DNA of 64,000 nucleotides. It comes from Candidatus Omnitrophota bacterium (lineage in GTDB: Bacteria > Omnitrophota > Gorgyraeia > Tantalellales > Tantalellaceae). Position 1 is the first letter of the stretch, and each line of letters opens with the position of its first letter. The stretch is from positions 10,670 to 74,669 of the forward strand of contig JBARQV010000020.1 of NCBI GenBank assembly GCA_049643885.1, read 5' to 3'. A model generated the notes under the pieces. It worked only from the letters and a program-made list of their open reading frames with translations. It was not told the origin of the DNA and did no database searches. This document shows positions 39,501 to 45,500 of this stretch, piece by piece. Made by a program: the position numbers and the translations under genes.

Positions 39501-42500
39501 TTGGAGCATGGCTTTGACGTAACCATTCCCGCTTTGAGGAAGACGGAAGACGATCTTGAGGCAATGTTGGCCGCAAAGTCGGAAGATGAGAAAGCGGAGA
39601 AGGAAGCCGCAAAGCCGGCAGAAAAGAAAGCGGCGAAAAAGGTGGCAAAAAAGAAGAAGGCTGCGAAGAAGGTGGCAAAGAAGGAAGCGGAACCAGCGGC
39701 AGCGGCATCAGCGTCGACGGCACCAGAGGCGGCGGCACCAGAAGCAGCGGAACCAAAAGTTGCAAAGAAAGCGGCAAAGAAGGCGGCTGCAAAGAAGAAG
39801 GCTGCGAAGAAGGCAGAACCAAAGGCGGCTGCACCAGAGGCAGCGGCGCCAAAAGCAGCAAAGAAGAAGGCTGCAAAGAAATCAAAGGCTCCTGCAGCGA
39901 TGCCTTCCCTGTTCAGTACAGTAGGTTTTGGCACAGTAGGTTCAGTAAGTACTCCCAAAAAGAAAAAGACCGAGCGGGAAAAGAAAGCCGATTATCTTGT
40001 TTCTTTAAGACTGATGGAAGAGAAAGATTCGATAGATGAAGCTATTGACGAAGCCCCCGATTATAGAAGGGACCTTTTAAGAAACCTTATCAATAATGAT
40101 GACCTCAAACTGAGGGAGCTGAAGACAAGAGGAAAATTCCTGCAGGATAAAGGTATCAATATAATTACCGGTGCGCAGCTGCTTGACGTTGATTCAAAGA
40201 CCCTTAGAGACAGACACAAGTATTTGACATCAAAGGATGTCGGCCTTTCCGGCAGTGAAGATCGTTTCTATATGGTTATGCTCCAGGAAAAGAACGACGT
40301 GTCGGAAAAGGTAAAGTTCCTTAAAGATCACGGCATGGATGTCACCGTCGAAAACCTTTTAAAGAGCAAGGCTGAGCTCGAAGCAGCCATACCGCTTCCC
40401 GAGAAAAAAGCGAATTACCTCGTTTCTTTAGGCCTTTTGAACGGTGAGAAGCCTTATAAGGATGCGTTGAAAGAGGTGACACCCGCGCGTTTAAAGACAA
40501 TACTGACCAGGATCGTGAATGACGACAATTTAACACTGGAAGACCTGAAAGCGAGAGCTGAATACCTGCAGAAAAGAGATATAGAGATAAACGCCCAGTC
40601 GGTGGAGCTGCTTGAGTTATCACTTGATGAGCTTAAGAAGAGATATGATTTCCTAAACCTTAAGTGCCTGGTTTCCAGCGATGAAAAGGATTTTGTGAAG
40701 CTGTTGAAGACCCAAAAAGAGACCGTGGAGGAGAAATACAAGATCCTCAAGAGGCACTTGATCCCCGTAACTGTCGCCAACCTACTGAAGAGCAAGAAAG
40801 CCATCGAAAAACTTATACCTCTTTCAGGACAGAAAGCCGATTATCTCGCGTCACTGGGTCTTATAGATGCCGAAAAAATGCTTTCAGAAGCCATTAGTGA
40901 AAAAGAACCCGAAGAAGTCAGGAAAGCCATCAATTTCATAGTTTTCAATAAGGATCTCAGTCTCAAAGACCTGCAAGCAAGGGCTAAGAAACTGCAGGAC
41001 GCGGGGATAGAGATAAACGACAATACGGTATTTTTACTTACAAAAGATATCGATTTTCTGACGGAAAAGATCAAGATATTGACAGAGGATGCCGGACTTA
41101 CAGGTAAGGAAGACGGGTTTGTCGAGCTTCTGTCTATCAGGAACAGCGCGCTTGACGAAAGATGCAAGCTCCTGAAAAGGCACGGCCTTGACGTGACGGT
41201 CGAAAACCTGAAGAAGAACATGGACGAGCTGAAGTCCATGGTCGATCTTCCGGGCCAGAAAGCCGACATACTCGCGAGGTATGGACTTATAGATAAGAAC
41301 CTGCCGATAGAAGAAGCCCTTGAAGCCCTCAAGAAGAAGAGAAGGCCGAAAGCGCTGCAGGATCTTTTAAGAGACCTCATTTATAACGATGATATCAGCG
41401 TAGAGCAGCTGAATCAGCGGCTTGGCCACCTGCAGATGAAGAACATAAAGATAAATTCCAAGACCGCGCATCTGCTGGGCCTGGATTTCCATACCCTTTT
41501 CGAGAGGAGTTATTTCCTCGAGAAAACAGCGGGATTCAAGTCTGAAGAAGTGGATTTTACGCCGCTTTTGGACGTCGCCAAAGAAGAGCTTGAGAAAAGA
41601 TATAATTTTCTGAAAAGGTACAACCTGCCGGTTACCGCGGAAAACATGCTGAAAAGCATGGATGACCTTCGTTCCATGATACCTCTCTGGGGCAAGAAGG
41701 CGGATTACCTGGCGTCTCTGGGCCTCTTGAGCGAGACAGGAACGGTCGATGACGCTATCGACAAAGCGCCCGAAGCCATAAGGGACGTCCTGAAGGGGAT
41801 CGTTTACGAAGACGAACTCAGCCTCGAGGACCTCAAGGAAAGAGCGGAATTTTTAAAAGAAAAGAACATCGCGATAAACGCCGATACGGCGCCGCTTCTC
41901 ACGGAAGGGCTCGATACCCTTAAAGAAAGATACGATTTCCTCACGGGAGATGAATTGCAGATCAGGCCTGAAGAAAAGGAATTCCCGGCTTTGATGAAAA
42001 CCCCGAAAGAAGAGATCGCCATGAGGCGCGATATACTGAAGAATTACGAGCTCCCGGTTACCGCGGCCAATCTTGCCAAGGACGAGGATGGGATCAGGCA
42101 GATAAAGACCGAAGCCGGCAAGAAAGCGGATTATCTCGCGTACCTGGGGCTGGACCCGAAGAGCGGATATCTCACCCAGTTTCGAACGAATTTCAGGAAT
42201 AAGAAGATGCCCATCCGGGAAGCGGTAGACGCCATATCTTCAAAGCATTACAGGAAGCTGTTCAAGAGGATCATCTACAGCGCCGACATACAGCTCTCGA
42301 GCCTGAACGGCAAGGCCAGGTTCATGCAGGAGAAGGGAATAACGCTCAATGTAAATACACTGTTCCTGCTCACGGTGAATTACGCGTCGCTGGAAGGCAA
42401 TTACGGTTTTCTCACAGAAGAGGCCAAAGTGAAGACAAGCGAAAAGGGTTTTGCGACGCTTCTGGCTATCCCGGAGGCCGAACTGCATAAAAGGCTCGGA

Positions 42501-45500
42501 TTCTTGCAGAGATACAAGCTTCCGGTGAACGCCGCCAACCTGGGCAAGACACTGGCGAAACTCGAGCACATGAAACCTCTCTGGGGCAAGAAAGCCGATT
42601 ACCTTGCGTCTTTGGGCCTCATGGATAAAGTAAAACCCATAAGCGAAGCCCTCGGTGAAGTCGACAGGAAATACGCAAAATATTTGGCAAAAGTTATCCT
42701 CAACGACCGTATCAGCCTGGAAGAACTCGAGAAGAGAGCCGAAAACATTAGGAGCAAGAATATTGAAATAACCCCGGATACGGCGGTCCTCCTTGTGGTA
42801 GACTTCTGGGTCCTTAATAAAAGGTACGAGCTTCTCACGAACGTGGCCGGTTTATCACCGGATCAGGAAGGATTTAAAAGACTTTTGAGCCTGCCGCACG
42901 CTGTGATATTGAAAAGGCTGAATATCCTCAAAAAATACGGGGTTGAACTGACGCCTGAATATTTCATAAAGAGCTTAAGAGAGATCATACATTTATTCCC
43001 ACTGGAAGCCCAGAAAAGGGTCTATTTCGCTTCTTTAGGCCTTATCGGCAGCGACCTTCTCAAATCCCTTGCCGAGGTCATAGGAGAAGCTCCCGGGTGG
43101 GTCAAGGAGTTCTTCGAAAGGCATATCGCTGACGATTCGATCACGCTGAAATATATCAAGAAAAGGATAAAATTCCTGCGGCGCAAGGGTTTCGATATAA
43201 GGCGCAGGAGAGTCGCTTCTTTCATGTCCCTGTTCCCGGGGATGTACCCCGCGATGACCGACCTTGAGATAAAGGTCAAGTTCCTGGAAAACCTGGGCAT
43301 CCAGCTGGATTCAAGATCGTTCCCGCTCCTTTTTATCAGCCTTAAAGACCTGTACAAGAGCCGTAATGCTATCATCGAGAGCGGGCTCGAGATGACCGCT
43401 AAGAACCTTAAAAAGGTCAGGGCGCCTCACAGGAGCCGCGCCGAGGTCCTGGCCAGGTTAAGGCGCGTTAGAACCGAGCGCAAGAATGACGATTTCGATC
43501 GCATATTAGGCGAGAAGGAGGCCGCAGAAGAAGGACTTCGTGCCCAGCTTTCCACGCTTCGGGAGCGGTTGGTCAGGGAACAAACACGCGCCAAGGAATT
43601 GGCCGAGTCCGCCGGCAGAGGCATCACGCATCACGAAAAAGATCACCTGCGCGCGCAAGACATGGTAGACGCTCTCAAGACCCATATCGCGAACACTAAA
43701 AAGGAACTGGAAGAAACGCAGAAAGGCAGGGAAAAATTCTATCGTGAACAGGGCATAAAAAGCAGGCTTGAAAAAGAGACGGGAAAAGTGACGCCCACCA
43801 GGGACGGCTTGTTCGCGAACCTGATCCCGGAACACATGAATTGGCTGAAGAATATGCACCGGATCGCGGGCGGCGCTTACAGATTAATAGCTAAACCGGA
43901 AGAAGTCATAGTGACATCCATAAAGAAGGAAAGCGAAGAAGGCCAGGCCGGTGAACCGGAAGAAACCGAAATTTTCGAAGGCACATCCATACCCGTGGCG
44001 AAAGGAATATTCACCCAGGTGGTCGACCGCCTGGAAAGCCTGAAAAGGTATATAGCCGGTGAAGCCGTCCAGAGGCCCGCCGCGGAAGCAGAAACAAAAG
44101 AAGTCAAAAAGATGGTAGAGGACAATGAGAGATTTTACGCGAATGTCGTTTCCAGGTTCGATGTCTGGGCAGAACTGAAAAAGGTGGAAAAAGGCAGGGA
44201 CCCCCTGGTCACGGAAGCGGCCGATGAGCTGGTCAGGATAGCCTGTGAGGAGCTTTCCAGGCATCTGTCGGAAGCTTATGGGCTCAAAGGGATCGAGTGG
44301 CTTACAAGCGAGCCCATACCTTTCCTTGAGCACCTTGTGATCAAGATCATCGACGAGAAAAGGGAAAGGAAACTTACCCCCGAAGAGAAAGCCGACATAA
44401 GGATGCGTATCGATACCAGGATGTGGGAGCTTTTCACCACAAGAAGGAAAGAGTTCACCGATCAGATCAGGAAGCTTTTTTCTGACCATAGAAAGGACGA
44501 TCCTTTCATGAGAGACTTTGTCCTGCACACGGTCCTTAAAGAGAAGATGATCGACCACAAGGCCCTGTCAAAGGACCAGGAAAGGCAGCTTACGGGCCTT
44601 TCCGCGCACCTCCAGGAGATCTTGGCGGAATACCTCACGGCGTATTACGAAAAACATTACCTGGACGCCAAACTGATGCAGCTTAAACAGCTTGAGGATG
44701 GAGGCGTAGAAGCCAGGGAGAAAGAGATAGACAAGCTTACGAAAGAACTGGATAGGCTGGAAACGGAAAAGACGAAGATCTCGCGTCTTATCGCGCAGAT
44801 AGAAGATTACAGGGATCGGAAGATGAGTGCCGAGGAAGAGATCGGAAGGCTCAAAGCCATGGAATCCGGTGAGATCACAGAGGAAAGGCGTTCCGAGATC
44901 CAGGCCCGCAAGGGGGAACTGGCCGCCGAGATCAGGACGCTCGCGGGCAGGCTGGAACGGGCGGAAGCTTCACTGAATACGGACCTGGCAGCGGTAAAAA
45001 CCGATAAGCTGAGAGAAGCCCGGGAGAAAGCCAAGGAAAAAGAGTCGGAAACAGAAAGCAGGATGGCCCAGGCCAAAAGGGCGGTAAGGGAAGCCGAATC
45101 GGGACTTGAGAAGATGCGCAGAGAGCAGGAAGCCCTGGAGAGGGCCGGGGGCGTAGCGGCTGATGTAGCCGTGGCTGTTACCGAGAGGCAGTACAGGGCC
45201 CAACTGGCGATCGAACAAGCGAAAGACGAGCTTAGAAGGGCGGAAGTCGATGAAAAGATCGAAGCTTTGCAGCTTGATATAGATGTCGTTTCTTCCCAGA
45301 TAGCCGAGCTGAAGATGGAGAGCATGAGGCTTCTCCGGAACATAGATTCGCAGATATCCCCGTCGGCGTTGGAGGAAAAGATAAAGGGCGTGGCAGGTAA
45401 GAGGGCCGAAACCAGGGCCGAACTTAACGCGGTGAACCCGGAAGAGACCACGAGCCTCGCGGCGCTGCTGAAAAAAATAGACGATTATTCCAAGGAACTG

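Follow-up and report, generated by a model that had tools for sequence, protein, structure and literature searches.

A candidate mTERF-like solenoid in a giant, putatively exported protein of an Omnitrophota bacterium

The stretch of DNA analyzed here, hereafter the window, comprises 64,000 nucleotides of a Candidatus Omnitrophota bacterium (GenBank assembly GCA_049643885.1, contig JBARQV010000020.1, positions 10,670 to 74,669) and carries three very long frames on the plus strand, genes 1, 2 and 3. The last of these, gene 3 (36435-63998, +), extends over more than 9,180 codons from its ATG and runs past the 3' end of the window; its frame is free of stops from 36309 to beyond 63998 (more than 9,200 codons), and the whole of the repeat array that is the subject of this study lies inside it. 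The results described below indicate that the repeated unit is very probably built of divergent mTERF-type motifs and that the array forms an mTERF-like solenoid.

The repeat array of gene 3 and its units

Eight tandem units were delimited by motif search and MAFFT alignment at 39981-43460 (+) within one open frame, with a KKADYLxSLGL-type motif at frame residues 1225, 1366, 1508, 1650, 1796, 1938, 2094 and 2235. The unit lengths are, in order, 141, 142, 142, 146, 142, 156, 141 and approximately 150 amino acids (aa), corresponding to periods of 423-468 bp, in agreement with an earlier note on this DNA that had described eight tandem repeats of about 141 aa. Aligned end to end, the units share 22-45% protein identity, with the eighth unit (u8) being the most divergent (22-29% identity to the others). 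When unit u5 alone was used as a phmmer query, the other seven units were matched with independent E-values (i-E) of 2e-6 to 2e-29, and a hidden Markov model (HMM) for which another organism supplied all the units (P0001 and P0002, see below) matched all eight (i-E 1e-22 to 5e-47), a similarity well in excess of what chance would give. A failure of the units to align at the protein level, which had been named beforehand as the outcome that would speak against a repeat, was thus not observed. At the nucleotide level, codon-aligned identity is 40-54% (60% at codon position 2 and 36% at position 3), and Tandem Repeats Finder (TRF) detected no period of about 423 bp in the DNA, returning only the short repeats of a Lys/Ala-rich tract; the proposal that the DNA had diverged under conserved protein motifs therefore holds. 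The low DNA identity, together with the excess of position 2 over position 3, is consistent with old duplications that were maintained by protein-level selection. No further copies of the unit were found by hmmsearch in gene 1, gene 2 or the remainder of gene 3.

Relatives of the array are few. The exhaustive profile search described in the next section, which covered 1.84 billion (1.84e9) representative proteins, yielded three relatives, making the family very rare; a word-index protein search returned one relative in all, and neither the GTDB genomes nor the JGI metagenomes yielded a match when scanned with the array. Two of the three relatives, P0001 and P0002, are fragments of one Omnitrophota metagenome-assembled genome (MAG), GCA_046759285.1, and jointly span the region equivalent to residues of about 850-3000 in gene 3; the third, P0003, is a 190-aa fragment from a contig of 658 bp. 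Comparing the best unit pairs between this orthologue and the window, unit u1 (39981-40403, +; 141 aa, net charge -4) is without a counterpart, and the following four units pair with P0001 units a to d in register: u2 (40404-40829, +; 142 aa, net +6) with a, u3 (40830-41255, +; 142 aa, net -6) with b, u4 (41256-41693, +; 146 aa, net +1; 76% identical to P0003) with c, and u5 (41694-42119, +; 142 aa, net -12) with d. Unit u6 (42120-42587, +; 156 aa, net +13), which carries a 14-aa insertion just past KKADYLAYLGL, pairs with the first P0002 unit (x), the partner of u7 (42588-43010, +; 141 aa, net +3) is ambiguous, and u8 (43011-43460, +; about 150 aa, net +14, beginning QKRVYFASLGL) pairs with P0002 unit z at 50% identity. 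This unit-by-unit orthology indicates that the array is older than the split of the two lineages, and, as judged from the sequences, the units evolve without concerted homogenisation, each position keeping its own sequence.

Additionally, a partial unit, u0, lies ahead of the eight at 39294-39572 (+); it covers motifs B-D (profile positions of about 51-138) and was retrieved by hmmsearch with an i-E of 9e-10, and with an i-E of 2e-8 when only the orthologue units were used to build the model. P0001 has the same half-unit, likewise ahead of its linker.

The internal organization of the unit was examined by sequence comparison and by AlphaFold2 (AF2) modelling. The model of u5 alone, computed from an alignment of the eight paralogues, is all-helical with ten helices and has a predicted local distance difference test score (pLDDT) of 93.4 and a predicted template modelling score (pTM) of 0.84, bearing out the suggestion that the modules consist of leucine-rich helical hairpins. 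A signature of the form basic-x-x-aromatic/aliphatic-Leu occurs four times per unit (K2..Y5L6, R50..F53L54, R79..F82L83 and R111..I114L115), with a spacing of its hydrophobic-Leu pair of 46, 30, 31 and 35 aa. In hhalign, the three central segments of about 30 aa (sub-motifs B, C and D) align with one another (P 2e-6 to 8e-5), and the segment at the unit boundary (sub-motif A) shows only a weak relation to them (P 0.017). Each motif pairs a long with a short helix and adds a turn; its signature ends in G-I/L, and long and short helices alternate in the AF2 models. The unit is read here as four mTERF-like motifs of about 30 aa plus one extra helix (residues 27-38), which brings the array to about 35 motifs overall. 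In a two-unit model of u3-u4, computed from six phase-matched rows (pLDDT 91.8, pTM 0.72), the pLDDT stays at about 90 over the junction, where the KKADYL helix of the second unit comes close behind the tail helix of the first; given this model confidence and the close helix succession, the array is predicted to be one continuous solenoid and not a row of separate domains.

Probable kinship with mTERF repeats

The evidence for the nature of the repeat comes from profile searches, profile-profile comparisons and fold searches. In the exhaustive search (cut-off E<=1e-3), the unit profile gave 15 matches in total, three of which (P0001, P0002 and P0003) are the true family members introduced above. 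The six proteins P0004-P0009 (E 2e-8 to 5e-5) all pass the gathering cut-off of the Pfam mTERF family (PF02536), as do P0012, an mTERF of the fern Ceratopteris (Pfam E 4e-53), and P0015, so that the unit HMM finds eight Pfam-positive mTERFs at whole-library E-values of 2e-8 to 9e-4. The remaining four of the twelve weak matches, all with E >1e-4, comprise one PPR protein, one coiled-coil protein and two proteins with scattered Pfam matches.

In profile-profile comparison by hhalign, the unit profile aligned with the alignment of the mTERF matches (A3) at a probability of 96.4% (E 1e-9), with the fern mTERF P0012 alone at 78% (E 2e-5), and with an mTERF-like family of DPANN archaea (A6) at 90.8% (E 1e-6) over three motifs, vs. 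0.1% for the two control regions of the window, which contain HEAT repeats (E 0.67) and TPR repeats (E 0.46). A TPR or HEAT identity was rejected on these grounds and because no Pfam TPR or HEAT match falls in 39960-43460; the resemblance to TPR repeats that the earlier note had also considered was therefore not upheld. Short Pfam matches to Pex14_N recur, but they cover only the 17 residues of the KKAxFLASKGL helix and gave no accepted stretch, and they were set aside as motif noise.

The fold searches point in the same direction. With one unit as the Foldseek query against the PDB, 13 of the 14 top matches were MTERF4, MTERF1 or MTERF3, with a TM-score on the query (TMq) of mostly 0.43-0.61 and a probability of up to 0.99. 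With two units, the top matches were MTERF4, MTERF3, MTERF1 and the Tetrahymena mitoribosomal chain 6z1p_BY (E 0.02-0.2); 4yxz and 5byo, both designed left-handed alpha/alpha toroids, are also among the matches and give at most an indirect hint of a left-handed superhelical twist. In sequence searches of the PDB, the array retrieved nothing, and the unit profile gave seven sub-threshold matches, among which MTERF3 (3m66) was the sixth (E 0.69).

Combined, these results make it very probable that the repeat is a divergent mTERF-type motif and the array an mTERF-like solenoid. The mTERF-like resemblance that had been guessed at from the sequence was thus borne out by all three approaches. The companion description of an unrecognised family stands insofar as Pfam is silent on the unit, and falls insofar as the unit is a divergent mTERF repeat; the suggestion of a novel fold is withdrawn, as the HMM matches are mTERFs and the fold is already known.

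The best non-self match of the unit profile, P0004 (E 2e-8; L002 950-2008), belongs to a family (with P0082-P0158) of small proteins of 200-460 aa with very regular 32-aa repeats that Pfam scores as mTERF. The hosts of this family are DPANN archaea, namely Micrarchaeota and Nanoarchaeota MAGs, and on L002 the P0004 gene adjoins genes for Spt4, an exosome subunit and an RNA-polymerase subunit. A literature search combining mTERF with Asgard returned nothing on archaeal mTERFs.

Putative export signal, linker and genomic surroundings

A hydrophobic segment near the N-terminus of gene 3, LFCKVVAFTVIIAFIVFDI (36567-36623, +; Kyte-Doolittle 2.52), has the character of a signal peptide or signal anchor, and its flanks (RRRH before, TWAQG/GTAPVWQHAKP after) follow the positive-inside pattern. 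The next candidate transmembrane (TM) segment found by Kyte-Doolittle scan in gene 3 is weak and lies about 3,900 residues further on, at aa 4018. The hydrophobic segment is followed by a conserved N-terminal module (INIQDAHASL...; 36624-38550, +, with an approximate 3' limit) that makes up the first 640 or so residues after the signal peptide. At least 64 homologues of this module, nearly all of them named Candidatus Omnitrophota or Omnitrophica, cover 50-72% of an 890-aa query; they are often partial and their downstream content is varied, and no Pfam family scores above its cut-off in the module. Several of the homologues begin with classical Sec signal peptides at the corresponding position (AFA/QE, VHA/ETPIWQH), with the predicted cleavage falling just before a conserved (T)PIWQH motif. 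The module looks like a head shared by many large exported proteins of Omnitrophota, and, because of the hydrophobic N-terminal segment of gene 3 and the Sec signal peptides of the homologues, the array is probably located outside the cytoplasm.

Between u0 and u1 lies a low-complexity linker rich in Lys, Ala and Pro (AAKKVAKKKKAAKK...; 39570-39980, +) with a net charge of +24 and an isoelectric point (pI) of 10.2, the DNA of which holds short repeats of 12-42 nt (TRF). In its place, the orthologue P0001 (residues of about 200-230) has an acidic Glu/Gly tract, EEEEEEPGGGGGGLGPTAPEDEEEED. By sequence, this is a disordered linker with conserved position and opposite charge in the orthologue, and we infer that the Lys/Ala-rich tract is a variable linker rather than a conserved functional partner of the array. 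The units themselves vary in net charge between -12 and +14 in the window, those of the orthologue between -9 and 0. Seven columns per unit are conserved as basic (K2, R30, R50, K57, R79, R111 and K129), including one residue per motif, three positions ahead of the hydrophobic-Leu pair (K2, R50, R79 and R111). The earlier note had placed the array directly after a histone H1-like tract and had taken this as a hint of nucleic-acid or polyanion binding. The basic tract is real, but the array starts upstream of it with u0, and the hint is weak given the acidic linker of the orthologue, the mixed charges of the units and the export signal.

The start of gene 3 is uncertain, the candidates being the ATG at 36435 and a TTG located upstream in the same frame, and two promoter-like sites precede the gene at 36069-36098 and 36246-36274. 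Downstream of both sites and surrounding the probable start, the sequence CTTGGC(A/G)AA occurs in seven exact copies and additional degenerate ones within 160 nt (36334-36492, +), spaced by about 14-46 nt; its count in the whole window is 8, vs. 1.4 expected by chance. The copies translate in frame as TWQ, TWR or AWQ, and the cluster could be a regulatory leader repeat or an odd N-terminal peptide repeat. Near the window end, gene 3 carries a strong HEAT_2 array (61761-62810, +; Pfam E 1e-38), with several predicted membrane segments nearby (frame residues 8108-9120).

Of the other two giant genes, gene 1 (2-6910, +; 2,302 aa) has its 5' end cut by the window edge and is without a Pfam match. 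Gene 2 (7096-35367, +; 9,423 aa) has only TPR-family matches above threshold, at protein residues of about 7550-8230 (2855-3532 of its second half), together with sub-threshold matches to ANAPC3 and to a DEAD helicase. The gap of about 1 kb separating genes 2 and 3 has a single occupant, a minus-strand gene for a 23S rRNA-intervening-sequence protein (IVP; 35567-35929, -; 120 aa, PF05635 E 5e-21), and gene 2 and the PF05635 gene could share a terminator, namely the GC-rich hairpin with T-runs that lies at 35430-35456. Minus-strand open frames beneath the array (up to 179 aa) were taken as non-coding, having a Ser/Phe/Leu-rich composition of antisense type. GC skew and AT skew are both positive in all 2-kb bins of the window, and no Rfam RNA family was found anywhere in it.

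Possible role of the array and comparison with known systems

The explanation favored here, to which we assign a probability of roughly one in two as a whole, is that the array is an exported structural or protein-docking mTERF-like solenoid of about 35 motifs in a protein of more than 9,000 aa. Sec-dependent export would place the array outside the cytoplasm. There it would serve as a long, semi-rigid spacer or scaffold with position-specific docking surfaces, on which partner proteins, or further segments of its own giant protein, are presented or docked. The unit-by-unit orthology of u2-u6 and u8 shows the sequence proper to each position to be retained, which is what a position-specific scaffold would lead one to expect, and the proposed role would parallel that of the HEAT and TPR arrays in other parts of Omnitrophota giant proteins. 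The scaffold or spacer function taken by itself is put forward tentatively. Under this explanation the array would not be a nucleic-acid binder of the transcription-termination type. The models additionally suggest that the super-repeat gives the array an overall superhelix unlike that of canonical mTERFs.

Several points weigh against this explanation. The whole array and the single unit gave no match to Pfam mTERF (PF02536) at E<=1, nor did any of the 12 units scanned singly at E<=10, so that the proposed homology to mTERF comes from remote methods. Among these, the hhalign comparison is partly circular, since its mTERF targets were chosen via the unit profile's own matches, and the Foldseek E-values are modest (0.1-3 with one unit and 0.02-0.2 with two). 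The two-unit model, spanning 8 motifs, reaches a global TM-score of 0.33-0.40 with a root-mean-square deviation of 12-20 A, suggesting that its superhelix differs from that of canonical mTERFs, and the AF2 alignments behind both models are shallow (6-8 paralogous or orthologous rows). The topology call is derived from a hydropathy script and the signal peptides of homologues. In addition, every characterised mTERF, to our knowledge, binds DNA or RNA, and the approximately seven conserved basic positions per unit would fit nucleic-acid binding as well as they fit salt bridges.

One alternative is that the array is a nucleic-acid-binding solenoid, the concave face of which tracks DNA or RNA at one motif per few nucleotides, with extracellular or prey/host nucleic acid as the target or, should the segment be cytoplasmic, that of the cell itself. 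The closest relatives in sequence and fold are all binders, as in the MTERF1-DNA and MTERF4-rRNA complexes, and TAL effectors appear lower in the fold-match list; Arg or Lys stands at the same position of every motif, in addition to R30, K57 and K129, the array adjoins the H1-like +24 tract in this genome, and the DPANN relatives are encoded near genes for Spt4, the exosome and RNA polymerase. However, units u1, u3 and u5 are acidic and those of the orthologue range from -9 to 0, the basic tract is swapped for an acidic one there, the export signal probably keeps the array away from the cell's own genome and ribosomes, and no nuclease, helicase or uptake domain was found by Pfam near the array. 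Nucleic-acid binding is a serious rival, although a less likely one. Binding of a non-nucleic polyanion or of a host or prey envelope polymer (e.g., teichoic-acid-like polymers, acidic S-layer glycans), the array then serving for adhesion in a surface protein of predatory or epibiotic type, is considered very unlikely. The probable extracytoplasmic location would suit it, as would the conserved basic positions, the Lys-rich tract of this genome and the proposal that giant proteins of Omnitrophota act in attachment and cell-wall attack (bioRxiv 10.1101/2023.11.21.568195). The mixed or acidic charges of the units and the acidic linker of the orthologue do not, and Pfam detected no carbohydrate-binding or enzymatic domain adjacent to the array. 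We know of no precedent for glycan binding by mTERF-type repeats.

A further alternative concerns the kinship itself, namely that an independent leucine-rich alpha-hairpin repeat has converged on the helix lengths and hydrophobic spacing of mTERFs. The failure of Pfam mTERF on every unit, the identity to mTERFs of only 12-27%, the low two-unit global TM-score and the four of twelve weak profile matches that are other repeat, coiled-coil or scattered-match proteins would all be expected from convergence, but every profile match between 2e-8 and 5e-5 in a library of 1.84e9 is an mTERF, hhalign gives 91-96% for mTERF vs. 0.1% for other solenoids, and mTERF structures rank first in the fold search with both models, making convergence quite unlikely. 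At the speculative end, the array could be a working nucleic-acid-binding mTERF-type solenoid of ultra-small predatory or epibiotic Omnitrophota, shown or delivered outside the cytoplasm and seizing or manipulating the DNA or RNA of archaeal or bacterial hosts, by analogy with TAL effectors in plants, in which case the kinship with the DPANN family would give the mTERF repeat prokaryotic roots; we regard this as a long shot.

The exported scaffold proposed above can be set beside several known systems. TAL effector repeats (AvrBs3, dHax3) are likewise bacterial, exported helical-hairpin arrays of about 34 aa per repeat. They are near-identical copies with variable di-residues, whereas the units described here are 22-45% identical and position-specific, and the Foldseek probability for TAL effectors was at most 0.16. 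The DPANN mTERF-like family is prokaryotic, like the array, and supplies its best non-self profile match; it differs in its small size (200-460 aa), its regular 32-aa repeats that are recognised by Pfam, the absence of a 141-aa super-repeat and of an evident link to giant proteins, and the position of the L002 gene amid archaeal information-processing genes.

In relation to mTERFs (PF02536; human MTERF1, MTERF3 and MTERF4, and plant mTERFs), the array has in common the tandem motifs of about 30 aa in a continuous solenoid, the spacing ...L..R..FL...GI....I..LL... and, by unit HMM and hhalign, profile homology to bona fide members. Known mTERFs are eukaryotic, organelle-targeted proteins of 300-600 aa with roughly 5-12 motifs. 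The array differs in that its units escape the Pfam model, its host is bacterial and its protein is probably exported and longer than 9,000 aa; additionally, its four-motif super-repeat of 141 aa with an extra helix extends to about 35 motifs, its superhelix deviates over 8 motifs (TM-score 0.33-0.40), and its charge is not uniformly basic. Gene 3 is neither eukaryotic and nucleus-encoded nor organelle-targeted, a Sec-type signal standing in place of a transit peptide, and its context is bacterial, with the 23S rRNA-IVP gene as neighbour and an Omnitrophota-specific module at the N-terminus. Reviews class mTERFs as eukaryotic proteins (PMC7909791), and a 2026 survey found mTERF genes to be absent from bacterial and fungal genomes (PMC12977773). 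A repeat held to be eukaryotic and organelle-specific is now placed, as a divergent form, in a bacterial protein, and with the array and the DPANN family together, the origin of the mTERF fold becomes open to testing. The extreme rarity of the array (three relatives in 1.84 billion) implies evolutionary and structural interest rather than wide biological reach.

Omnitrophota are known for giant genes (bioRxiv 10.1101/2023.11.21.568195; 10.64898/2026.06.07.730766), and neither of these two studies mentions mTERF. In the preprint of West-Roberts et al. (2023; bioRxiv 10.1101/2023.11.21.568195), HEAT repeats are confined to the predicted extracellular parts of the giant proteins and are interpreted as scaffolds for assembly or binding. 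Gene 3 has the features of such 'Archaeovorins' (>9,180 codons, a HEAT_2 array at E 1e-38, an N-terminal signal and a few TM segments), and the array shares with their HEAT and TPR arrays the kind of host protein and probably the role of an alpha-solenoid scaffold, differing in its motif (hhalign 0.1%) and probably in its handedness. The array would therefore add a third solenoid type, beside HEAT and TPR, to the mostly unannotated giant proteins of Omnitrophota. Overall, what is new relative to these systems is the bacterial host, the setting in a giant, probably exported protein, the four-motif super-repeat and the unusual length of the array.

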